Positions 3,522-51,106 of a DNA stretch of 64,000 nucleotides are shown here, piece by piece. The notes under the pieces were generated by a model. The model did not search any database and had not been told where the DNA came from. It was given only the letters and a program-made list of their open reading frames with translations. Every line of letters begins with the position of its first letter. Positions within the stretch are counted from its first letter, which is position 1. The stretch is from a phage, in the NCBI GenBank assembly GCA_026066175.1, contig GCA_026066175.1_4721.1. One strand, 5' to 3'. The position numbers and the translations under genes are program-made.

Positions 3522-4322
3522 TTAACGTGTTCTCCTGTCACGATGGGTATATGACTGTAATCCGATGTCCATATGCGGTAACGTCAATGTTTGCCAGATC
3601 TGTTGTGCGTAGCGATCGAGTGTGTAGTCGTTGGTAACGCAGTCAACAGGTTCAATGAGATGCGTCGTATATTGACTTTTCTCTGAAAACGGATCAACGT
3701 TAGCAGTATCTCCTAGTCCGCTTTTCACCGTGAAAACAAGACGAGTAACCACCATCGCTTTACGTTGTTGCTCGTTATAACGAAGGCCACGATAAATCGC
3801 ATAGCTCGCGCCTTTCAGGCTTCGGGTATAACGAAGGTCAGATGTTGTCCCGCCAATTTGATGCAACATCCAGTCTAATGTATCCCGCCAGTATTTATCA
3901 TCCGTGTCAGGTACCTCGATACCGTAACGGGTGGGAAGCATATCCAGAAGCAGTTTGTAGAGTCCACGACGCAAGCCGTGTTCTTCTGTTTCTGATAACA
4001 TCTTTCCTCCAACATAACGAGAAATACGTGTTCGTAAATACGCACGAATAAACATGCACGTCATTACTGTTTTCGAGTGGCTGGTGATGTCTTCAAAAGT
4101 ATCAACACTGAAACTCGTTTCGATCAACCGTCCGTTAAAGTACAATGCAGCTACATACATCGCGCTACTGCTGTCTCGGTCGATGTTCAAACGACCGCAG
4201 ATATTGGCTGCGTCGTTCATGGTAAATTCGAGTTTGTCGTGTTCAATACGGTAGATAATATCTTCTTGGGTTGCCAGGCTCGCAATACGACGATAGCCTG
4301 GAGTAGTACGTTTAACGCTCAT
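3522..4322 (-). CDS. hypothetical protein
   Basis: Start placed at the ATG at 4322 (GAGGA SD 7 nt upstream) rather than the tracked ATG at 4361, which lies inside the conserved TTTATGCCGTC intergenic motif. Confidence 0.5.
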   Translation of the reverse strand: MSVKRTTPGYRRIASLATQEDIIYRIEHDKLEFTMNDAANICGRLNIDRDSSSAMYVAALYFNGRLIETSFSVDTFEDITSHSKTVMTCMFIRAYLRTRISRYVGGKMLSETEEHGLRRGLYKLLLDMLPTRYGIEVPDTDDKYWRDTLDWMLHQIGGTTSDLRYTRSLKGASYAIYRGLRYNEQQRKAMVVTRLVFTVKSGLGDTANVDPFSEKSQYTTHLIEPVDCVTNDYTLDRYAQQIWQTLTLPHMDIGLQSYTHRDRRTR

Positions 4323-4353
4323 AATGGTCCTCGATTTCAATTTTAGGATTACA

Positions 4354-4389
4354 GACGGCATAAACCCTCCCCGCGCTATGCAGGGAGGG
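4354..4389 (-). promoter_or_regulatory. GC-rich hairpin plus conserved TTTATGCCGTC motif (terminator / late-promoter-like composite)
   Basis: Minus strand reads hairpin CCCTCCC..GGGAGGG followed directly by TTTATGCCGTC, about 40 nt upstream of the gene start at 4322. Same composite recurs at about 12883, 39180 and 61262. Confidence 0.45.
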
Positions 4390-4412
4390 TAGCCATTGGT
4401 TGTCTTCGCCGG

Positions 4413-5051
4413 TTAGCCTAATTTACCTCCGGCGATGTTCGTGAAGTCTTCACCATCAGGGACCTGCAACAGAATACGTGCCATGTCCCAGTTGGTCAAT
4501 GTGATTGCTTTATCATCGATACTCAGTTCTGGTAGGTCGAGCTCATGATCATCGAACTCGTAGGAAATGCTCCATGTTTCATCAGTTTTAGGATCAGTTA
4601 TCAGCACACCGTCTGTTACACGCATGTAATCAGGGTGCAGCTCATTACTGAACGTGCTGAACGGATCGGTGTAACATTCAGCATAACCCTCGATCTGCTG
4701 ACGCTGTGCCTTCGTACGTAACTCAGGACACGCCATGATCAGCTGTCGGGAAATGCCGTTAGCCGCTCGGAAATCTTCCACGGTGATGCACGGCATCACC
4801 ACATCGTCATGGAAGATATTCTCCGACTGTCTCAACAAGGTCTTACGAAGTTCAGTATAGTTGATCTGATTGAACGTATCGAATGTTGCTAACGATTCCG
4901 CGTAAAAATGCTTTACGTGTTCGTTTGCGCCACCGAGACTGTTCATCAGCTTATGACCATACTCCATAAAGCTTTTATCGAGCCCAGTATTCATTTCTCC
5001 GAACCGTAGTGCACGATAGCTGTCTCGTCCACCTGTAAATATTTGCGCCAT
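4413..5051 (-). CDS. hypothetical protein
   Basis: 212-aa ORF; strong AAAGGAGG SD upstream of the ATG at 5051. Confidence 0.5.
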   Translation of the reverse strand: MAQIFTGGRDSYRALRFGEMNTGLDKSFMEYGHKLMNSLGGANEHVKHFYAESLATFDTFNQINYTELRKTLLRQSENIFHDDVVMPCITVEDFRAANGISRQLIMACPELRTKAQRQQIEGYAECYTDPFSTFSNELHPDYMRVTDGVLITDPKTDETWSISYEFDDHELDLPELSIDDKAITLTNWDMARILLQVPDGEDFTNIAGGKLG

Positions 5052-5066
5052 TACAGGCGTCCTCCT

Positions 5067-5304
5067 TTAGCATTGGTTATTGATTGCTTCTATTTCATCG
5101 ATATACGGTTCTACGTCATCGCCCTCCACGAATTCGTTGAACCAACAGTCAATCGTTGAGATAACCGGTGACTGATGTTCACATTTCTTAGATACCTTAA
5201 ACGGAACGTTGTTATCCATCATACCGAGTTCGGGTCGGAATCGCCCGAAATGTTTCGCAGTCCAAATGTCTGGGACGATATGGTTGTTCATAGCGTCTCC
5301 GTCG
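5067..5304 (-). CDS. RNAP beta-prime N-terminal subunit, exon 3 (starts inside the catalytic DFDGD motif)
   Basis: In-frame codons just upstream of tracked ORF 5067..5291 read C-GAC-GGA-GAC-GCT-ATG = (F)DGDAM, followed by MNNHIVP, matching bacterial beta-prime NADFDGDQMAVHVP. Boundary set after the G that follows the intron S element. Confidence 0.55.
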
Positions 5305-5683
5305 CTGTTTGTCGACTATATCTTCATCTTCATTGCGAAGAGACTCTCGTTTGGGTTTGTGTTTAACAAAGCCTACTCTACTCAACATCGCGTCTTTCGA
5401 TAGTCTGTGAGCACACATCTTAACGAATATTCGTGGGTTCCTACAGACAGGTGAATATTCTTGTTGAGATGCTTCGCTGCGGATTATTCCCGTCCTACCT
5501 CTTTTACCATACCCAGTTCATTACGCTGGCCCTCATCGATGTCACCATGATGAGTTGGTGTGTAGTCCGATTACAGAAACTTCCCGTCAATTAGAGAGTT
5601 TTAACTATGCTCCTGTTACCAGGAACCAGATCCCGACGGCATCAATAAATCAACGTAAGTTATTGATTTAATTGAAAAAACTG
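5305..5683 (-). mobile_element. group I intron B (td-like, ORF-less)
   Basis: Minus strand carries group I core elements in order: Q AATCCGCAGC (5490-5476), R TCACAGACTA (5410-5401), S GATATAGTC (5322-5314), ending in G at 5305. P3-like AACTCTCTAATTGACGGGAAG near 5615. Only about 9 nt separate S from the 3' splice site (short P9). Confidence 0.55.
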
Positions 5684-5696
5684 AAATCTGCATTAT
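5684..5696 (-). CDS. 13-nt micro-exon (AT-AAT-GCA-GAT-TT) encoding the NADF part of YNADFDGD
   Basis: Lies between intron A (ends in G at 5697) and intron B. Splicing exon1-microexon-exon3 gives in-frame ...MILKGS-Y-NADF-DGDAMNNHIVP..., recreating the universal YNADFDGD motif. Both upstream exons end in U as group I 5' splice sites require. Confidence 0.5.
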
Positions 5697-6059
5697 CTAA
5701 ACCTTCGATATGGTTCGCTACGCCATACCCGCACATACGTGCAGCTTACGTCTTTCACGTAAGAAGAGACTATATCTTTCACCCTCAGCTTTACCTGTTA
5801 GGGGCTCCCATTTCGGCGGTCGTTTGACCGGTGGTTTCCCACGCCGCTTGGCCCTAACGCCCGTAAGCGATAGTCGTTGAGCACATCTCCGTTCTGGAGA
5901 CTTCGCTGCGGATTCCCCAATCCTTACTGCTTTTACCGTACCTGAATGATTAGTTCAGCCCCATGCTCTGTTCCCAGGCATGGTTGGTGAGCAAGGCTCT
6001 AAGTAGGTTCCCGCTATTAGAGAGTTCCTCGTGATAGCATTACTGTGTCACTGGGCCTA
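5697..6059 (-). mobile_element. group I intron A (td-like, ORF-less)
   Basis: Minus strand core elements: GGAACTCTCTAATAGCGGGAACC (P3 region), GGTAAAAGCAGTAAGGATTGGGGAATCCGCAGC (Q, 5914-5905), TCAACGACTA (R, 5880-5871), GATATAGTC (S, 5776-5768), then P9 hairpins CTTACGTGAAAGACGTAAG and GCACGTATGTGC. No ORF of 60 aa or more in this stretch. Confidence 0.65.
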
Positions 6060-7305
6060 ATGACCCTTTCAAGATCATCACGCTTAACCCGATGGTATTA
6101 TCCTGCGGGTCGCGTTTAACCTTGGTGATTTCAAGACATTGGTTACTGCTACGGTCAAGTGATGGATTTCGAACAAAGCCACACACAATCCCATCGAACG
6201 GTGTATCAGCAATAAGCTCGTCATGCAGCTCGCTCATCATCGGATGATAATTGCGGACATGCTCTGCAACGAACGCACGGGCTGCTCTTGGTGAATAACC
6301 ACGATGGAATAACTTGGATTGGATATGTTCTTTATTGGTTAGTGTAAATGGTGCGTACGGAAAATGCAGATGATAATAACGATGGTTTGCTGTTATCGAA
6401 CTGATGACCGTACGTGTGGTGAATGGATGTAATGTACCTAATATGTTCTTACGTGTGATCCCTTTCTTCTTACCAATGAACTCATCGAAAATCGCCGAGT
6501 GATACTGCAACAGCTTCAATTGCACTTTCGCCATCCAGTTTTCTTTCTTTCTGGCGCTTAGTGGCGTGGTTGGATGATAGATGCTATTCAATGTTCCGAT
6601 GGCGTCTATCGCACCTTCCATTTTGCTGTCAGCGTAACGTCCTGTTGGCGTGTTCTCGATCACGAACATCATGGCTGCAGGAAAGCTGATGTACTGACTG
6701 AAGAATTTATCCCGATGAATACGGATGAATTCGCGTAGCGTATCAACCTTCTCCATGTTCTTCGGTCCACGTAGTGTTGGGCCTTTATACAAGATCTCCA
6801 TGATACGATCGAAGTTCTGTATAAAGCTATTTATACCGCGTCGTATTCCGAATACATCGAATTGCTGTTCCAGATAGTTCTTAAGTTCGATCGGTCGTTT
6901 TACGTTCGGACGGTAACTGGCATCAATGAGCCACGTCATCGTTTCAAAGCTTTTGATATTCAACTCGCTTGCCAGCACGAGATGGACCAACGGGTTAATG
7001 AACGCATCGATACCTTCCGGTACGCGCGCCCAGACCGTTGAACGAATCTCTTGTTCTGCTGGATAAGTGACAACCGTTTTACAGTTCGGGCACACCGTCC
7101 CTAATAACTCACCGCGATTATAGAAACCACAACCGCATTGCGGGGTGATATCCAAGGTATCGCTAGAGTAAACACGGGTGATGAAACTGTTTAATTTCTT
7201 CTTCTCTTCCACGACCTTCGTATCATAATCGTTCAACAATATCGGCGTAAAAGGAAGTTCTGCGAGCTGTCTATCGAAACTGACGATATCGAGCATGATG
7301 GCCAT
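6060..7305 (-). CDS. RNAP beta-prime N-terminal subunit, exon 1 (non-virion-RNAP-like)
   Basis: Zinc ribbon CGCG..x12..CPNC near the N-terminus. GKKKGITRKNILGTLHPFTTRTVISSI matches beta-prime [25 protein letters not shown]. Tracked ORF runs to a stop at 6040, but homology ends exactly where NADFDGD is expected; predicted 5' splice site is after U at 6060. AGGAG SD upstream of ATG 7305. Confidence 0.7.
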
Positions 7306-43471: not shown

Positions 43472-44602
43472 TTATTTGGCTTCATTAAAATAAATATCAA
43501 CGGCACGTTCCGTTGCGTAGAGAAGACCCAGATTCACGGTCCCTACCACTTCCGGTGAACCGATGATACGGTTAGCGATACTGGTGCCACTGAAGATAGC
43601 ATCAAGGGTGTGCCCGTCTTCGGTTTTGTTCACACCATGACCCACGGAAGAGACAACGGATTTCGCCTGTGCGGCGAAGGTACCTTTATCCCCCATTCCC
43701 GCACCAAGGTCGTAACGCATGAAAATACGGATCGCGATCTGGTTCTCACCTAACGGATTACCGTCTATTCTCACGTTACTGTTATTGATGCGTCCCGTTG
43801 TTGCTTCGTTGAGTTTCAGTTCCTTAACACGTTTAGCTCGCGCCTTATCAGCGTCACCCACAAGTGCTGCCATGGTTTCGCTCATGTCTTCAATCTGAGC
43901 GCGGTACAACACATCGATCTGTACGACTTCACCATGCACGTCAGCGCGTGGGTTATACTGACTCATACGGCGTAACGCTTCAACCGCTTCCTGACTTTCA
44001 TCGCTCAGATCGGTTGCAATAGGTTCTTCCAGTGTTGCCAGGATCGTCCGAGGTTCAACATGATCGCCGATTTTCACCAAACCACGAATGTTGAGATGAG
44101 CGTCAACAATGAGCGTACGGCTCTTAATCGATGGGGTTACGAGACGATCGGCAAGATTGTCGAAGATATACGAACTGTCCTCGTGCGTTTCTGGAATATC
44201 CAGAATACCAACCAGAGACAACACGCCTGCGCGCCAAACAACCTGACCTGGGTTCCACCAATCCCGTTTAAAATAAAGACGATGGAAAACCACTACATCC
44301 TGGTCCTTAACGCGATCCCCGACTTTATAATCGGTAATGAGATCGTGAGGATAATACTTACCTGGTCCTTTCCCGATTATCGTACCGAGTTGGAAAACCT
44401 CTTCCCCTAATTCTGGATCGTCGTATTGTATCGTAAGCGCTGTTTTGGTGACCTTCTTCACAACACCATCGCCTTGAGCAGCTGCTGCGAAGAGTTTACC
44501 AACACGATGCGCGATAACAGTCTCGCCACCAGTGCGCCATGGTTGTACGTCGTAACCTTCAGCGGCTATCATGCGGTTGTGTTGGATGCCTATAAACACC
44601 AA
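43472..44602 (-). CDS. RNAP beta subunit, middle segment (probable exon 2 of an intron-split beta gene)
   Basis: [28 protein letters not shown] matches beta [35 protein letters not shown]...[21 protein letters not shown] matches beta GRHGNKGVIS...[22 protein letters not shown]. The tracked ORF begins at a TTG, not ATG, consistent with an internal exon. Confidence 0.6.
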   Translation of the reverse strand: [376 protein letters not shown]

Positions 44603-46273
44603 TCTCTTGGGCGAATTTAGTTCTTATTCAGTATTAACATACCGTTACCGAAATAAGACTGAGATTAGATTGTTCAGATAAGGTCGTTAATCTTATCCCG
44701 GAGGTGATGATAGGCACATCACCTCCCGCTTACGTTCTCACGCAAGAGCAGACTATATCACATCTCGTTTCAAACGGTGCTTCTTCAGCACCTCAACGAG
44801 AGTTCACTTCTTCCCAGCGCATCCAGCGCCATTCTCTTATCCAAGGAGAATGCCTCACTCGAGGGGTACAGGGGGATGAATCCCTTAGTCGTTGAACCGT
44901 CACCCTAGAACGTTTCACAACGATCCTTAGGCGATTGGCTGCGGATTACCCTTGGCCTGCGGACCACGAACTTTTGTCGCGGTCAACTCTTCATTTTTAA
45001 AGCCTGCTTCACGAGCAATACGTCTCGCTTCTCGCACGTCTAACGTTTCCGTTTCCGCTTTGGCTGAAGGCAGCATTGGGCGTCCCCGCAATTCAATGAA
45101 TCTCGTCCATACGTCACCGTATAAACGGACCCGCTCTTTGTAAACAGAATAGTAGATATAACGTTTTCCGTCAGGAAATTTAGTCATTCCATCCGACTTT
45201 AAACGGTAATTGAGTAACGTAGTAGATATACCCATTTCTTCAGCGCAATCGACGGCCGAAAGGTACAACAGAGGTACATCATTTTCAGGAATGACGACAA
45301 TAGCACGTTTGTTGGTTGTCTTCTCCAACTCCAGGATACTATCTTCGACTTCTCGCCATGGCGTCTCATCAGTAACCCACTTAACTTGATAACAACCATT
45401 AACGACAGGTTGGTTCTTGTCGTTAACGTACATCGACGCAGTGGATAACTTAACACCAATGTGATTCGCGAATTCAGTCAATGATTCGAAAAGATGAATC
45501 TCTTTTGTTATCGTTGACCTTGCAATCACACCCTTACTTCCCGTATCCGTCAACGTTGCTAACTCGTATTTGGTGGGAATACGCCATGGTTCATCGCCGT
45601 AATCTTTGCGGTACTGCTTACGTTCAGGAAACGCTCGCTGTTTGCCTCTATAGACACGATGATGAATGAAGTCGATATTCACACCAAGATCGCGTGCCGC
45701 TTCCGTCATGGATGGATATCTGGTTACAACACCGGTATCAACATCACGAACCTGAATAGGTTTACCGTAGGCAGCAATTGAACGTTTACGCATGTTCATA
45801 ATGCGAGCATGCTGATTGTTCTCTTTCTGCGTAACCCATTCAAGATTGTCATTCTCGGCGTTACCGTCGGGATCAAGGTAGTTATTAAGTCTGTTGCCGT
45901 CCTTGTGGTTCACATGGAGCAAATGCGCATCATCGATGTTACGGAACGTTAACATTAGAAGCCTGTGCATGGAACGGTAAACCAATGTTCCATCGTGACC
46001 TCGAAACGAATAACGATAATACCCAGCAATGATGGTGGGCAAATATTCAAACTTCGATTCCTTGTTACGCAATGTTCCATCTATGGATATCTCCAGGAAC
46101 GGGAATTCCGGTACGGTCTTAAATACCTTCTCACTCATTGACTATATTCCTCTTGTGCAGTGAAACTAACTACACTTTCGTAATATAGCCTTAATTCTGT
46201 TTACATTGAAGCCTTAATCATCTCTATCAGCAGCAGGTACTGCAAGTGCTGATGTACTCATTATTGACGAGCT
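44603..46273 (-). mobile_element. group I intron (td-like) carrying an HNH homing endonuclease ORF; boundaries approximate
   Basis: Minus-strand core elements 3' of the HNH ORF: Q GGGTAATCCGCAGCC (overlapping the last HNH codons, about 44950-44937), R GGTTCAACGACTAAGGG (about 44899-44883), S GATATAGTC (about 44760-44752), then P9-like hairpins. Beta homology in the upstream ORF ends at ...SVYGETKPYDEKTDG. Confidence 0.55.
44927..46138 (-). CDS. HNH homing endonuclease (intron-encoded)
   Basis: 403 aa; HNH motif HVNHKDGNRLNNYLDPDGNAENDNLEWVTQKENNQHA; basic C-terminal DNA-binding-like region; lies between two beta segments. Confidence 0.8.
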   Translation of the reverse strand: MSEKVFKTVPEFPFLEISIDGTLRNKESKFEYLPTIIAGYYRYSFRGHDGTLVYRSMHRLLMLTFRNIDDAHLLHVNHKDGNRLNNYLDPDGNAENDNLEWVTQKENNQHARIMNMRKRSIAAYGKPIQVRDVDTGVVTRYPSMTEAARDLGVNIDFIHHRVYRGKQRAFPERKQYRKDYGDEPWRIPTKYELATLTDTGSKGVIARSTITKEIHLFESLTEFANHIGVKLSTASMYVNDKNQPVVNGCYQVKWVTDETPWREVEDSILELEKTTNKRAIVVIPENDVPLLYLSAVDCAEEMGISTTLLNYRLKSDGMTKFPDGKRYIYYSVYKERVRLYGDVWTRFIELRGRPMLPSAKAETETLDVREARRIAREAGFKNEELTATKVRGPQAKGNPQPIA

Positions 46274-49200
46274 ACCATCCGTTTTCTCGTCGTAGGGTTT
46301 CGTTTCACCGTATACAGACACAATGTTTGCGTTAGGTGCGAGGTAAGCAGAAATACCTACGTCCCCACTATCCTTCGTACCTTCGGATACAACACCAATG
46401 TCCGACTTGTCGTACTCACGATCGCGTGCGCGTCGAAGCGATGTTTTCGAACGACCCCCGATACCGGTCATCGTTGCTTCTTCACCCTGCTTGATATCCA
46501 GCATCGGGTTGGTTTCATCGATGACGATAGAAGCACTGTCGTCAAGGATTTGGTTCCAAACGCTCACCGGACTGATTGAGATCTTCTGTCGGTTGCCTTG
46601 GCTGCTGTTCTCGTTTTGACGAATAGCACCAACCAGATCCTTATACACCAACTCAGCGAACTTATCGTACGTTTTGAAGCGCTGGTAGTTCACGTCGTTC
46701 GTGTTAGGTGCCCAATCGTCCAGAAGCAGTTCAACCGCACGTAATAACAACATGGCGAAATCAGTCGGTTCGCCCATGTTCTGTAATAACGTACGACTTA
46801 CCGGGTCGACGAAAAGACGCTCCATGAGTTCAAGTTCGCGAAGATGACGAACCTTAAGACCTGCACCATCGACAACGTTAAAATAGATATCCCGATTGTC
46901 GAAAGCACCTCGAGCGTAACCAATGTAGTTACGGTATTCGTTGAATCCGCCTAACAACAATGTCGTCATTCGATCATCTTTACTGAAGATCAAACTTTCA
47001 TCGTCGAAGCTCACCGCGAATTCATCCGATGCTAATCCCATACGAGAACCACGAGGTACCGTACGGTAGTTCGCTTTAAGATGTTCTAATAACGGTGTAA
47101 GACCACCTAAGTAACTTAACACAACACCAACCGGAATACGTACGCCCATGAACTCAAGGTCAGCGGCTTCGATGGGCATCTTCGCGGCATTGATACCGAA
47201 GAAATCAGGGAACGTTCCAACCGGCGTTGGGGTTTGATTCGGTTCGTAAACGTATAACTGATTCTGACCATCCACCGCCAGGAATTCGCCGTTGGTGTTT
47301 TTGGCGAACGTTAAGAATCCACCCGCCAGCTGTTCGGTGAATAAATCTTCACCGATGTGTTCCGGCAACGTTTTGATATCGAGGCGTATGTCCCAATCCG
47401 CAAATTGGATTTGGGTGTAGTTACGTGCAAGCACCGCGAAGTAATACGGAACTTTGACAGACGGATCAAAGACGTTACCACGTTTTAAGGTGGTTAAGGG
47501 CGAGGTTTTATCGTAATACATCGCTGTGAGTTGACGTGTTAACCAACGACCAGCATTATTAACCACGCGTTCTGAACGCTTAACGAACACCTTACCGTAG
47601 GCGGTACTCAACGCAACTTCGGATGACGATACCTTTCTGATTGGTTTATCGACACGTTGTTTACGCATTCGATATTTAATGCCGTTAACGACATAAATGC
47701 CGTCCTTACGAACCTTCGGTAACATCACCGGGAACGTGGTCGGAACACCGCCTACCGGAGCCAGCTTGATCGTGATGACCTGGTAATCACCCATCACGTC
47801 AACAACATCTTCAACTTTATATCCGGTAACAGGATAGCCCGCTTGCTGCACCGCCACAACGGCTGCTGCGATGTCCTTTTGCATGACATGTTCGACGTAG
47901 TGTTTATCCCATACGGCAAGCGTCGATTTGCACAAGCTCTTATCAACGATAACGTCCGCTTCCGGCATCACCTTCTCAGGTGCTAATTTCGCGGCTTTTG
48001 GTTTAACCTCAACGTATTCAGCAAGCGTGAGTCCAGAACCGTCAGGTGCTTCAATTTCATGAATCGCGTCAGCGTTACGCATCGCTGCTTTATATTGAAC
48101 GCCGCTTAATTGACCAGCATCCGCGAGGTCGCTTGCACGTACCAGCACTGCATCGGATAACGACTGAATATATTCACCGTGCGTTTTCGGTAACGTTGCC
48201 GCATCGAAGACATCAACTTTTTCTTCCGGCATGTCATCGTTGACAACCTCAAAGAGATCATCGGTGATGTCTTGATCTTCGTCCGGTTGAAAATCGGGCT
48301 GAACTTCAACGCCAGGGACTTCACGAACATCTTCAAACGCACGTTCAACAACCGCGTTCCATGCTTCAGCGTCGTCATCTTCATCCGATCCTCCGATCAA
48401 CTCGCTTTCCAGTTCATCGGGGTCAAGAACGGTATCAAGGTCCTCACCGTTAGGAAGCACGACATCACGTTCATCGTACTCCGCATCGGGACTGTCTGCG
48501 AGAATATCACGCTCTTGACGAAGAACCTGCTCCTCTTCTTGTTTCTGTTCTTCTTCATTGGCGCTCTGCGACCACAGACGGGTTACCGCCATCATCCAAC
48601 GACGCTGGAACGTTTCAAGCGTTGTCTTATCAAGTTCCTCGCCTTCCTTCGCTAAACCCGAACGCCATTCTTCCATTAAACCAAGATTCAGAGTAAAGAA
48701 ATAGACGCCGTCCGTAAATACAACGTTAAGCTTATCCAGCGAAGCACGGTCCAATGATACCATCGTGCTGTTCTCACGATCGACACCTAACCAACGGAAG
48801 AAGTCAAAGAACGACAGCTCCTCGGAGGTGGCAAAATTCATGAGGTTATTACGGGTTGGGGCTTGTTGTGTCGTACGCATCAACGATATCTTCGGTAACG
48901 TCGACGGGATACGGAATAACAAGAACTGCTGACGGTCGCTTTGTTGGGCGATCTCGTTTGCTTGCGTCCAAATCGTTTTACGCACGTTGAACCATTCATC
49001 ATACCAACGGGTCAGTGTCGGACGATAGATGTACATGTGGTTAAGATGCGCATAGTTAGCCACGATCTGGGCGTTGATGTTCTTCTCAACCTTGCTAAGA
49101 TCGGTGACCAAACGAAAACGACGATGCGATGCACGGTAATCCAGTTTCGCACGCGGTAGCTGGAATCGCTGATCGCGTCGAGGTGCGCCTTGCTTGGTTG

Positions 49201-49423
49201 CAAGATCATCCGCGAATGATATCCAAAGCTGGGCGCTTTCTTTGCTCAGCATGTATTCGTTTTCAGGAGGACCGATTAACGAAGGATCGGTTGCTGTATA
49301 ATGATAAACCGCATAACGCGGCAGCTGCAAAAGCTGCACCAAACGCAATCTAGGTGATAATAACTCTTGATAACGTCGTACACCGAATTGTCTGTAGTAA
49401 TCAAGGTATTTAAGTTTTGCCAT
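46214..49423 (-). CDS. RNAP beta subunit, N-terminal segment (virion-RNAP-like set); last ~20 codons may be intronic read-through
   Basis: 1069 aa. C-terminal TGIGGRSKTSLRRARDREYD...EGTKDSGDVGISAYLAPNANIVSVYGETKPY matches beta LGPGGLTRERAGFEVRDVH...[30 protein letters not shown]. Start is translationally coupled to the upstream beta-prime gene. Confidence 0.6.
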   Translation of the reverse strand: MAKLKYLDYYRQFGVRRYQELLSPRLRLVQLLQLPRYAVYHYTATDPSLIGPPENEYMLSKESAQLWISFADDLATKQGAPRRDQRFQLPRAKLDYRASHRRFRLVTDLSKVEKNINAQIVANYAHLNHMYIYRPTLTRWYDEWFNVRKTIWTQANEIAQQSDRQQFLLFRIPSTLPKISLMRTTQQAPTRNNLMNFATSEELSFFDFFRWLGVDRENSTMVSLDRASLDKLNVVFTDGVYFFTLNLGLMEEWRSGLAKEGEELDKTTLETFQRRWMMAVTRLWSQSANEEEQKQEEEQVLRQERDILADSPDAEYDERDVVLPNGEDLDTVLDPDELESELIGGSDEDDDAEAWNAVVERAFEDVREVPGVEVQPDFQPDEDQDITDDLFEVVNDDMPEEKVDVFDAATLPKTHGEYIQSLSDAVLVRASDLADAGQLSGVQYKAAMRNADAIHEIEAPDGSGLTLAEYVEVKPKAAKLAPEKVMPEADVIVDKSLCKSTLAVWDKHYVEHVMQKDIAAAVVAVQQAGYPVTGYKVEDVVDVMGDYQVITIKLAPVGGVPTTFPVMLPKVRKDGIYVVNGIKYRMRKQRVDKPIRKVSSSEVALSTAYGKVFVKRSERVVNNAGRWLTRQLTAMYYDKTSPLTTLKRGNVFDPSVKVPYYFAVLARNYTQIQFADWDIRLDIKTLPEHIGEDLFTEQLAGGFLTFAKNTNGEFLAVDGQNQLYVYEPNQTPTPVGTFPDFFGINAAKMPIEAADLEFMGVRIPVGVVLSYLGGLTPLLEHLKANYRTVPRGSRMGLASDEFAVSFDDESLIFSKDDRMTTLLLGGFNEYRNYIGYARGAFDNRDIYFNVVDGAGLKVRHLRELELMERLFVDPVSRTLLQNMGEPTDFAMLLLRAVELLLDDWAPNTNDVNYQRFKTYDKFAELVYKDLVGAIRQNENSSQGNRQKISISPVSVWNQILDDSASIVIDETNPMLDIKQGEEATMTGIGGRSKTSLRRARDREYDKSDIGVVSEGTKDSGDVGISAYLAPNANIVSVYGETKPYDEKTDGSSSIMSTSALAVPAADRDD

Positions 49424-49426
49424 GAG

Positions 49427-51106
49427 TTAGGCTCCACGAGGTCCCGTTAAGTTGCGTAATAGGAACGCAACCGTATCGTAACCAATATCAATGTTGAATT
49501 TATTTTTACCGCTTACCCAGAAAGCACGCTTCTTGTGCGAGTTGGTAATTTCGTCGATGGCTTCCATGGAATAAAGAACGTTAACAGAGACCGTATCACC
49601 GTCGAAATCGGCCCCGAGCCCGGCGAGAAACACTTGGCCGACTTGGGTCGTTTCTACGAACGATGCTTTTAATGACCAATCTGGGTATTCCCACGCCATA
49701 TAACGATAGCCTTCCATCGGTTGCCAGCTATCGTCGAGTTCTATTCTCGGTTTTGTATTAACCGTCGTTCTCACATAGCAAGTTAACGGTATAACTGACT
49801 GCATCCCGGATACCGGATAACGTGTAACCATCGCACCGAGTTTATTCCAAAGATGGTAACCACTCAGATAAATCAACTCGCAATAGGTAATTGGGTGAAC
49901 ATTCGCACCAGGTTTGTTAAGCATCTCTGGTGGTAATTCACTCATACCACGGAACAGCCGGAATGAGTTGTTGTTCACATAGACCAAACAGAGATAGCGA
50001 CCATTCACCATGATAGGTTCGTTACGTACACCAGGATCGCTTAGGGTGTTTAATAAACGTTCGATGCCGTCCCAGGTTGTAAAGTCATCGATGGTATCTG
50101 GGTCTAGCGTGACACGTTCACGTTCCATCGTTTCGGTATCGATAAGCTCAGCTTCAGTAACATCGCGAACAAAGATTTCTTGTAATATCCCTGTACGTAA
50201 CGCATGTTGCGTTATCGGAAGGGCTGCTTTGCTCATCTGGTATAGGCCGAGCTGTACAGACGTACACGATGTTTGGTTTGGAGAGCCAAGAACTTCGGTC
50301 GTTGGAATAACTGCTGAAATAACGTTACGGGTTGAGTTCCAAACACGACGTGAACCGAACTTACCTTGGAAGATCCCTTTCTTACCCTGGAACATATCCA
50401 ACAGCAATGCGTAGATATCATTGAAGGTTCTTTGCAGGCTCCAGCGCTGTCCGTCGTAGACAGGATCGTTGTAGTCCTTTAACCCATCGGGAACGGTATT
50501 GGAGATAGCAAGGAAACGACGATAAAGCTCCGTGATTTCTTGTTCGCTTTCATACCCGCCTTCTTTTACTTCTATTTCACGAAGACCAGCAGGTAACACC
50601 AATAAATGACGGGTCATCGCTTTGAACATGTTTTCTTCGACAACTTTAATACGCAGTTCTCGTTGCGCTGAACCTGTTGAAACGAACATGATCTCCGCAA
50701 CGTGTTGTGCGAAGAAACCGTAGCCGGTTTGTCCCGTTAACGCATCAGCGGCAACGAAATCACGTTGTTCTGGATCCCATCGCGCATAAGCTTTACCGGA
50801 CATGATATCGCCATAAAGGTGTTTCAATCGAATAAGGCGATCGTAAATGACCGGATGCAAGATTTCCACTTTACACTCGATGACCGCAAAGCGGCGATCA
50901 CGATCTTCGCTTCCCGCGCTCCCAAAAATGGTGTACGAATAAAAACCATCGTCATGGAAATTACCCGTGCTCGGGTCGCGGATACTCATGCTGGTAATCT
51001 TAGGAAGGAAACGCAACTGCTGCTTATCAAGATGCAGTATACTGATATTGAACGGCTCTCTGACTTTAGCCATGGATGCACTCCTTAAATAAGGCGGCGG
51101 TATCAT
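49427..51106 (-). CDS. RNAP beta-prime N-terminal fragment with catalytic DFDGD motif (virion-RNAP-like set)
   Basis: 559 aa. FQGKKGIFQGKFGSRRVWNSTRNVISAVIP (beta-prime lid/rudder region) and LAGLGADFDGDTVSVNVLYSMEA (NADFDGD Mg-binding motif). My line count puts the start ATG 1 nt off the tracked coordinate; tracked coordinates are used. Confidence 0.8.
   Translation of the reverse strand: MIPPPYLRSASMAKVREPFNISILHLDKQQLRFLPKITSMSIRDPSTGNFHDDGFYSYTIFGSAGSEDRDRRFAVIECKVEILHPVIYDRLIRLKHLYGDIMSGKAYARWDPEQRDFVAADALTGQTGYGFFAQHVAEIMFVSTGSAQRELRIKVVEENMFKAMTRHLLVLPAGLREIEVKEGGYESEQEITELYRRFLAISNTVPDGLKDYNDPVYDGQRWSLQRTFNDIYALLLDMFQGKKGIFQGKFGSRRVWNSTRNVISAVIPTTEVLGSPNQTSCTSVQLGLYQMSKAALPITQHALRTGILQEIFVRDVTEAELIDTETMERERVTLDPDTIDDFTTWDGIERLLNTLSDPGVRNEPIMVNGRYLCLVYVNNNSFRLFRGMSELPPEMLNKPGANVHPITYCELIYLSGYHLWNKLGAMVTRYPVSGMQSVIPLTCYVRTTVNTKPRIELDDSWQPMEGYRYMAWEYPDWSLKASFVETTQVGQVFLAGLGADFDGDTVSVNVLYSMEAIDEITNSHKKRAFWVSGKNKFNIDIGYDTVAFLLRNLTGPRGA

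Follow-up and report, generated by a model that had tools for sequence, protein, structure and literature searches.

A phage DNA stretch of 64,000 nucleotides (nt) (assembly GCA_026066175.1, contig GCA_026066175.1_4721.1; hereafter the window, in whose positions all coordinates are given) carries on its minus strand two open reading frames (ORFs) related to the beta subunit of RNA polymerase (RNAP) and, between them, a third ORF encoding an HNH endonuclease. All three were found at the coordinates given by an earlier reading of the letters, here called the original prediction (Table 1). The locus poses a simple question: is a single beta gene cut here by a group I intron that carries the endonuclease gene, or does a free-standing HNH gene lie between two naturally split beta genes? 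We favour the first answer, already preferred in the original prediction, and give a probability of roughly 0.9 to the reading that a mobile td-like group I intron with an HNH gene interrupts the beta gene of the virion RNAP. The evidence comprises intron-less alleles in related phages, a match to the Rfam family RF00028 together with helices P1-P9.2, an ORF-less version of the intron in a related genome (L094), and the homology of the locus to gp211, gp210 and gp209 of phage PhiPA3.

The interrupted beta gene and its predicted splice junction

The PHROG 3148 family ('RNA polymerase beta subunit', profile 1424 long) is covered from position 2 to 1050 by ORF 46214..49423 and from position 1055 to 1422 by ORF 43472..44602. 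Since only four profile positions are missing between them, the two ORFs represent adjacent pieces of one family. The window matches Escherichia phage vB_EcoM_Goslar at 88% nucleotide identity; at this locus the match breaks into two pieces, with ~1.6 kb of the window skipped, and the Goslar beta gene gp207 is one continuous coding sequence (CDS) of 1448 amino acids (aa). Judged by homology to Goslar gp207, PhiPA3 gp211/209 and phiKZ gp178, ORFs 46214..49423 and 43472..44602 are the two exons of one virion-RNAP beta gene, and the host gene is the beta subunit of the virion-packaged RNAP in a Goslar-like nucleus-forming jumbo phage of E. coli. A sequence search of the PDB with the beta region around the junction returned no match.

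Where does the intron begin and end? Group I boundaries call for a U preceding the 5' splice site and a G as the final intron base. The sole in-frame, length-preserving solution places the 5' splice after U46217 (GAU GAU↓UAA..., the arrow marking a junction here and below) and the 3' splice after G44612 (...AAAUUCG↓CCC AAG AGA UUG). The first three intron bases, UAA, form an in-frame stop after exon 1, and the annotated ORF end (TAA, 46214-46216) already belongs to the intron. In-silico removal of 46216..44612 yields an ORF of 4347 nt encoding 1448 aa, which aligns with gp207 at 96.6% identity and without a gap column. The predicted joined protein reads ...AADRDD↓PKRLVFIG..., and the predicted junction in spliced RNA or complementary DNA is ...GATAGAGATGAT↓CCCAAGAGATTG (GATGAT↓CCCAAG). 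Across the same site Goslar reads ...STSALAVPAVDRDD GKRL VFVGIQHNRM..., whereas exon 1 of the window reads ...STSALAVPAADRDD, followed at once by TAA, and its exon 2 frame opens with PKRL.

Comparison with relatives supports both ends of the intron. Goslar and two further Goslar-like genomes, L100 and L101, lack an intron at exactly the insertion point of the window. The intron 3' end ...UUCG↓CCN AAR is common to the window, the Serratia phages 2050HW and Kodama, and the Goslar-like genomes L004 and L094. In the three intron-containing Goslar-like alleles the first codon of exon 2 is CCC, CCA or CCG, all specifying Pro; this synonymous variation argues that the codon is translated and fixes the 3' junction. 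The TTG at 44602, with which the annotated second ORF opens, is accordingly read by us as an internal Leu codon and no start.

The original prediction had let the beta homology end at ...SVYGETKPYDEKTDG (...EKTDG) and had joined position ~46274 to 44611. The 3' side of that join (CCC AAG AGA TTG, 44611) stands. Its 5' side lies 57 nt too far upstream: the homology goes on for 19 codons (SSSIMSTSALAVPAADRDD), to the codon before the TAA, so that a join at ~46274 would delete 19 conserved residues. A 7-bp pairing, ACCUGCU/AGCGGGU, with splicing after U46235 was also considered and was rejected because it would delete the conserved AADRDD.

The ribozyme core and the endonuclease gene

A second question is whether the sequence between the exons has the architecture of a group I intron. 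A covariance search, set beforehand as the test that could refute the intron, matched RF00028 (group I intron) at 45152..44729 on the minus strand with 51.4 bits (E 3.9e-10; model 1-253 in full), over the curated gathering threshold of 50 bits. Introns of relatives at the same site score 82.6 bits (Serratia 2050HW) and 67.8 bits (PhiPA3). The strings proposed as the Q, R and S elements, GGGTAATCCGCAGCC, GGTTCAACGACTA and GATATAGTCT, were located at the places named for them.

The helices were compared in the window and seven relatives (L094, Serratia 2050HW, Serratia Kodama, PhiPA3, Vibrio C-ZP2022, a Goslar beta-prime intron and the T-even td intron). A helix table was used for this purpose, because a five-sequence MAFFT alignment that included the Goslar beta-prime intron and td was too rough for the counting of pairs. 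According to this table, in which pairs were checked by script, P1-P9.2 consist of canonical pairs in the window and in the seven related introns. All eight introns have a P3 of 6 base pairs (bp) in one register, which covaries at 6/6 positions, and P4 covaries at two positions (G-C in the window, A-U in L094, U-A in 2050HW and PhiPA3), while P7, GACUA/UAGUC, is invariant. In L094, P2 is UCUAUGUG-GCGA-CAUGUAGA, with one compensatory change from C-G to U-A relative to the window. Unguided folding of the window, L004 and L094 with RNAalifold recovered P4, P5, P6, P7.1, P7.2, P8, P9, P9.1 and P9.2, with six pairs changed on both sides. Hairpins homologous to P7.1 and P7.2 are present in td, 2050HW and PhiPA3. 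The presence of P7.1 and P7.2 between P7 and the P3 3' strand is the signature of subgroup IA in the scheme of Michel and Westhof, and by its helix plan the window intron is td-like and of the subgroup IA type. The peripheral elements vary: the P5 extension of L094 is shorter than that of the window and different from it, and L004 and L094 have, in place of the 3'-terminal hairpin of the window, a hairpin of another type that is common to both.

The guide sequence was placed by comparison with relatives, in which a conserved GGUC-type element stands directly 5' of P2 and 3' of the ORF. In Serratia 2050HW, P1 is UGAU↓U/GGUCA (U-A), and in Kodama it is CGAU↓C/GGUCG (C-G), a compensatory difference; in Vibrio C-ZP2022, GACGAU↓C faces GGUCGUC with 6/6 matches (GACGAU/GUCGUC). 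In the window, P1 is extended by the pairing GCUU/GAGC (45136-45133) and by a 9-bp stem, UGUAAACAG/CUGUUUACA (45147-45139), which closes a loop of ~1 kb containing the ORF; 2050HW, Kodama, PhiPA3 and the Goslar beta-prime intron have comparable long stems at the base of their ORF-containing loops. In the ORF-less L094 the corresponding sequence, GAUGAU↓UAAGGCUUUAAUAGCGGGGUCCG, is a compact P1 hairpin with a 5-nt loop, UUAAU, which places the HNH cassette in the P1 loop. The original prediction had put the HNH ORF simply 5' of the core. This has to be revised, as the gene lies inside the P1 loop and its final ~210 nt overlap the P1 3' strand, P2, P3, P4, P5 and P6.

Other guide candidates were discarded. 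A brute-force complementarity search offered GUUAGUUUC in the 5' leader (at 46170), which is wobble-rich and fits several registers. The key pairs of another candidate, GUUAUAUCUA at 45162, are lost in L004 through synonymous changes in the ORF. Several 6-mers inside the ORF, likewise found by complementarity, were dropped in favour of GGUC at 45131-45128 after comparison with the relatives and the ORF-less L094.

The identification of the middle ORF as an HNH endonuclease holds. It has its own Shine-Dalgarno sequence, AAGAGGA (46154-46148), and an AUG at 46138. The 403-aa protein matches phrog_59 'HNH endonuclease' (E 2.6e-38) and Pfam NUMOD1 with 34.4 bits (cut-off 22.8), and more weakly Pfam I-TevI_DNA-bd and I-HmuI_NUMOD-like. 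It contains the motif VNH(78)KDG...DNLEW...N107..HA, followed by NUMOD1 and DNA-binding modules of the I-TevI type; H78, N98 and N107 are invariant across seven homologs, and H78 aligns with H82 of PhiPA3 gp210. This PhiPA3 protein is the best phage match (36% identity, E 5e-46), followed by Serratia 2050HW gp101 and Vibrio C-ZP2022 gene 245, and the only solved relative is I-HmuI (PDB 1U3E; E 3.5e-5 over residues 38-154). The ORFs of the window and L004 differ at 22 nucleotides, 17 of them at third codon positions, with four changing an amino acid; such a distribution is the pattern of purifying selection. The frame has no stop until P6, so its end overlaps the guide, the P1 3' strand, P2, P3, P4, the P5 extension and P6 (44927..45139), and the last ~60-70 residues, encoded by the ribozyme core, are absent from the PhiPA3, Serratia and Vibrio homologs. 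Within this tail region the window and L004 differ at one nucleotide only, so that the pattern of purifying selection is no guide to this part.

Table 1 Features of the interrupted beta gene and its intron in the window, in the order of transcription
Feature	Position	Strand	Description
First beta ORF	46214..49423	-	1069 aa, ATG start
Exon 1 (predicted)	46217..49423	-	codons 1-1069, ends ...AADRDD (GAT AGA GAT GAT); collinear with Goslar gp207
Group I intron (predicted)	44612..46216	-	1605 nt; starts UAAGGCUU..., ends ...ACUAAAUUCG, last base omegaG = 44612
P1 5' strand	46216..46219	-	GAU↓U, 5' splice site between U46217 and U46216
P1 extension, 5' strands	46197..46212	-	GCUU (46212-46209), UGUAAACAG (46205-46197)
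HNH endonuclease ORF	44927..46138	-	403 aa
P1 extension, 3' strands, and guide	45128..45147	-	CUGUUUACA AA GAGC G GGUC
Internal guide sequence GGUC	45131-45128	-	pairs with GAU↓U; wobble of U46217 with G45130
P2 hairpin	45106..45125	-	UUUAUACG-GUGA-CGUAUGGA, GNRA loop
P3 5' strand, J3/4, P4 5' strand ('P' element)	45082..45100	-	UUCAUU (45100-45095), GAAU, UGCGGG (45090-45085)
P5 and ~125-nt extension	45081-44948, including GGGU 3' strand	-	GCCC/GGGU; also encodes the C-terminal tail of the HNH ORF
Q element	44951-44937	-	GGGTAATCCGCAGCC; P5 3' strand GGGU, AA, P4 3' strand UCCGCA (44945-44940)
P6a/P6b hairpin	44900..44934	-	contains the HNH stop codon TAA (44929-44927)
R element	44898-44886	-	GGTTCAACGACTA / GGUUCAACGACUA; P7 5' strand GACUA
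P7.1 and P7.2	44853..44884	-	GGGA-UUCA-UCCC and CCUC-GAGU-GAGG
Two extra lineage-specific hairpins	44817..44852	-	CAUUCUC...GAGAAUG, GCGC...GCGC; absent from 2050HW and PhiPA3
P3 3' strand	44808-44803	-	AGUGAA
P8	44763..44801	-	UCUCGUU/AACGAGA and inner GGUGCU/AGCACC stem
S element	44759-44750	-	GATATAGTCT / GAUAUAGUCU; P7 3' strand UAGUC
P9	44746-44729	-	GAGA loop
P9.1	44726-44700	-	from core comparison
P9.2	44697-44677	-	from core comparison
Extra 3'-terminal hairpin	44622..44658	-	UCUUAUU...AAUAAGA, between P9.2 and the 3' splice site
Exon 2 (predicted)	43472..44611	-	codons 1070-1448 and stop; begins CCC AAG AGA UUG = PKRL
Second beta ORF	43472..44602	-	376 aa, TTG start

Alleles, alternatives and mobility

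Is the interruption a fixed property of these phages? Six Goslar-like genomes were compared (the window, L004, L094, Goslar, L100 and L101), including the intron-minus relatives whose comparison had been proposed with the original prediction, and three allele states were found. The intron with the HNH gene is present in the window and, at the same site, in L004 (an IMG/VR contig of 237.5 kb); the intron alone, 503 nt long and ORF-less, occupies this site in L094 (metagenome contig OGZS01000006.1, 238 kb); and no intron is present in Goslar, L100 and L101, where the gene is read straight through. The search of IMG/VR yielded just one close relative of the intron, L004.

The exon sequences around the site follow the allele state. 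All three intron-containing alleles read GSSSIM...AADRDD↓PKRLVFIG (haplotype S/I/A/P/I), and all three intron-less alleles read GISSVM...AVDRDD GKRLVFVG (haplotype I/V/V/G/V). A comparison of the window with L004 gives 98-100% identity for the intron together with the 3'-most 100 nt of exon 1, as against 86.7% for the whole of exon 1, 92.8% for the whole of exon 2 and only 59% for the final ~90 nt of the intron. The tract of recombination appears to stop within the intron, close to P9.2. Between the window and L094, the intron core (90.8%) and the exons (91.5%) show a similar divergence. The pattern in the window and L004 is what recent lateral transfer with co-conversion of the 5'-side exon would leave, and it provides indirect evidence for mobility. 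As a separate observation, divergence at the locus is greatest in 44601..44700, a region made up of the final ~90 nt of the intron and the opening ~12 nt of exon 2.

Several points weigh against an active intron of this kind. The RF00028 score exceeds the curated cut-off by just 1.4 bits, the helix table was put together by hand, and P3 and P7 are missing from the RNAalifold result for the three Goslar-like alleles; both helices are invariant in this set, and the program is therefore uninformative about them. P1 has only 3 bp on its exon side, to which one intron pair is added, and position -4 is a U x C mismatch, as in PhiPA3; a competing register, AGAU↓G with CGUUU, puts the splice site 3 nt upstream; and P10 amounts to <=2 bp. 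In the endonuclease, Pfam HNH_3 reaches 17.3 bits, under its cut-off of 24.8. Finally, the ORF runs ~210 nt into the core, and translating this part might hinder folding. In nucleus-forming phages transcription is kept apart from translation (PMC12908238), and one may speculate that this separation by the phage nucleus lets the overlap of ORF and core be tolerated.

Among the competing explanations, the one that survives best, very improbable though it is in our estimation, is that the intron has decayed and no longer splices, the beta gene being a pseudogene and the metagenomic genome either defective or wrongly assembled. The marginal Rfam score, the weak P1 and the lineage-specific insertions (the P5 extension, the two extra hairpins and the 3' hairpin) would fit such decay. 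Against a decayed intron, however, these phages are considered unable to do without their virion RNAP (PMC11620839). Moreover, the window, L004 and L094 keep both exons open in frame and the core helices canonical, with compensatory changes in P2 and P4, and the HNH ORF bears the pattern of purifying selection; it is because three genomes preserve these features that decay appears unlikely.

Hardly credible is the second possibility named at the outset, namely that a free-standing HNH gene separates naturally split beta genes, so that no splicing takes place and polypeptides of 1069 aa and 376 aa (the latter from TTG 44602) assemble. RNAP subunits of chimalliviruses are indeed split into separate genes, both beta pieces are open frames, the second with a possible TTG start, and the public annotations of PhiPA3, 2050HW, Kodama and C-ZP2022 give separate CDSs. 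Nevertheless, Goslar, L100 and L101 have the gene in one piece, the two parts in the window flank a complete group I core, and the retention in L094 of a ribozyme without the HNH gene is not predicted by a split-gene model. In addition, the reading frame keeps codons for Pro-Lys-Arg 5' of the TTG that vary synonymously, and the only purine-rich stretch before the TTG (AAGAGA) abuts it, too close for a ribosome-binding site. The same intron spliced after U46220 (P1 AGAU↓G with CGUUU, product ...ADRD↓PKRL..., one residue shorter), although favoured by RNAduplex as a 5-bp register in isolation, can be dismissed as scarcely tenable, since it deletes the second conserved Asp, whereas in all relatives and in the intron-less alleles DD and the x-K-R after it stand at an unchanged spacing, and in 2050HW, Kodama and Vibrio it is the guide GGUC, identified by homology, that varies in concert with the exon.

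We therefore return to a beta gene interrupted by a mobile group I intron. Catalysis by the ribozyme and the endonuclease is what we infer from the observed interruption, boundaries, fold, homology, polymorphism and co-conversion-like haplotypes, and it would proceed as follows. The precursor messenger RNA would fold into the P1-P9.2 ribozyme; free guanosine would attack after U46217, held in P1 by the U-G wobble with the guide GGUC; and exon 1 would then attack after G44612, giving a ligated message for the 1448-aa beta subunit. The HNH protein would be translated from its own Shine-Dalgarno sequence and AUG (46154-46136) and, by homology to PhiPA3 gp210 and I-HmuI, would most likely nick intron-less alleles of co-infecting relatives near GAC GAT↓GGA AAA. 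The predicted target in Goslar gp207 lies around GACCGTGACGAT↓GGAAAACGT, within the gp207 site GTAGACCGTGACGATGGAAAACGTCTGGTT. Recombinational repair would then copy the intron and the adjacent exon markers into the cut genome.

More tentative, and in our view rather doubtful, is the proposal that a polymorphic homing system is active at present in Goslar-like phages, at the Asp-Asp site used by the PhiPA3 intron. If so, the endonuclease of the window phage would nick intron-less Goslar in mixed infections, and interference competition through introns among nucleus-forming phages could be studied in an E. coli model. The allele series (with HNH gene, without it, and intron-less, each with its own exon haplotype) suits tests of homing, co-conversion and competition. 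For annotation, the two 'RNA polymerase beta subunit' CDSs and the 'putative endonuclease' would amount to one spliced gene of 1448 aa and a mobile intron in the window phage, and a similar logic of re-annotation applies to PhiPA3, 2050HW, Kodama and C-ZP2022.

Comparison with known systems

How does the window intron relate to systems already described? The most distant comparison is with I-HmuI and I-BasI, nicking HNH enzymes of introns in the DNA polymerase genes of Bacillus phages. They share with the window protein the order of an HNH domain followed by DNA-binding modules of the NUMOD type. I-HmuI is otherwise distant, with another host gene and another intron, and the window protein is more than twice the length of the solved chain.

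The T-even td intron resembles the window intron in its helix plan, with P7.1, P7.2, P9, P9.1 and P9.2, and also begins with an in-frame UAA; its P2, UAUAAG-GUGA-CUUAUA, shares the GUGA loop with P2 of the window. Two blocks are 100% identical between td and the window, one of 15 nt in the S element (44745..44759) and one of 32 nt in the P9.2 region (44671..44702, 32/32). Such identity could stem from an exchange of modules by unrelated E. coli phages or from a strong constraint on function; the window intron may be a mosaic that has exchanged its P9.2 module with a T-even td intron. The 15- and 32-nt blocks were found in the td intron of about 40 T-even phages, whereas the closer relatives L004 and L094 differ within the P9.2 block. 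td differs from the window intron in its host gene, thymidylate synthase, and in its 3' end, as it ends 5 nt past the shared block, where the window has ~60 more nt including a hairpin. The enzyme of td, I-TevI, is of the GIY-YIG type and is encoded in the P6a loop, in contrast to the HNH gene in P1 of the window.

Closer in lineage are the introns of Goslar itself, described as non-coding RNAs gs001 and gs002 (HNH genes gp186 and gp206). They belong to the same phage lineage and td-like core family, share a 32-nt match around the R element with the window, and are alignable with it in P9, P9.1 and P9.2; like the window intron, they sit in catalytic motifs of RNAP genes. gs001 and gs002 differ in their location, the (N)ADFDGD motif of the two beta-prime-like genes. 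Goslar is without the beta-gene intron and the window without gs002/gp206, and our literature search found no paper describing a beta-gene intron in Goslar-like phages.

The beta-prime-like genes of these phages showed further interruptions. The window homolog of Goslar gp247 (ORFs 6040..7305 and 5067..5291) is apparently cut inside the NADFDGD motif at 5305..6083 on the minus strand, by two tandem ORF-less group-I-like elements that score 49.1 bits (5674..5305) and 27.9 bits (6083..5746) with RF00028. Between them lies a micro-exon of ~13 nt, so that the gene would read KG↓YNADF↓DGDAMNNH, with splice points judged by eye. The same ~30-nt NADFDGD stretch is occupied differently in Goslar (L091, Goslar 163000-212000, ~4860-6650, compared with window 5291-6065): intron A with HNH gp186 in its P9 loop, the micro-exon C GAC GGU GAC GCU and an ORF-less intron precede AUG AAC AAC CAU. 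The two genomes together therefore reveal three intron sites within ~30 nt, and a single gene of Goslar probably has gp247 and gp185 as exons. The gene upstream of beta (49427..51106, GLGADFDGDTVSV) shows no interruption in the window (49606..49647, set against L001 811-2894), and its Goslar counterpart is split inside ADFDGD (GLGGD↓FDGD) by an intron of ~2.1 kb that carries gp206, so that the Goslar gp205 annotation falls short of the last ~60 codons. ORF-less versions of the gp206 intron were found in L093 and L101. In Klebsiella phage phiKp_32 (L088, locus 4280-5700), a related HNH intron lies in the same beta gene as that of the window, ~9-10 nt further downstream (exon 1 ...SDDPKR...), which represents a second, neighbouring site in the same conserved motif.

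The layout of the window locus itself recurs in Serratia 2050HW, Serratia Kodama and Vibrio C-ZP2022, in which, as in PhiPA3, an endonuclease gene lies between two 'RNA polymerase beta subunit' CDSs; a group I core stands 3' of the endonuclease in PhiPA3, 2050HW and C-ZP2022. For PhiPA3, gp210 has been described in a putative group I intron directly after two conserved Asp of the virion RNAP beta subunit, a phiKZ gp178 homolog (Birkholz et al., Science 2024, PMC11620839). According to the same work, gp210 is a nicking HNH enzyme, inactivated by H82R, that gives PhiPA3 a competitive edge over phiKZ, and the second conserved Asp at the insertion point is equated with D675 of E. coli RpoB (PMC11620839).

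The correspondence with the window is close. Exon 1 aligns with PhiPA3 gp211 (31% identity, E 8e-160) up to exactly DRDD/MNDD, and exon 2 aligns with gp209 (39% identity, E 9e-89) from residue 2 (KRL/KRV). In both phages the insertion stands right after the two conserved Asp codons, the HNH endonucleases are homologous, and the endonuclease gene lies 5' of the core with a long stem closing onto the guide, which is of the GUCC type with the U x C at -4. The two systems differ in the host (Pseudomonas for PhiPA3, E. coli for the window phage) and in the first codon of exon 2 (Met and Pro, respectively). Compared with PhiPA3, the window ORF is ~70 aa longer and reads through P2-P6, the intron has an additional P5 extension, two hairpins after P7.2 and a 3'-terminal hairpin, and its P9.2 region is nearer to td. 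Nicking activity and the competitive effect have been demonstrated for PhiPA3 gp210 only. By these comparisons, the window intron belongs to the already known PhiPA3-type mobile introns at the Asp-Asp site and implies no new mechanism or category; what is new is its occurrence in a Goslar-like phage of E. coli. The weaponised intron type of PhiPA3 would thereby extend to the E. coli relatives of Goslar, a laboratory model of the phage nucleus.

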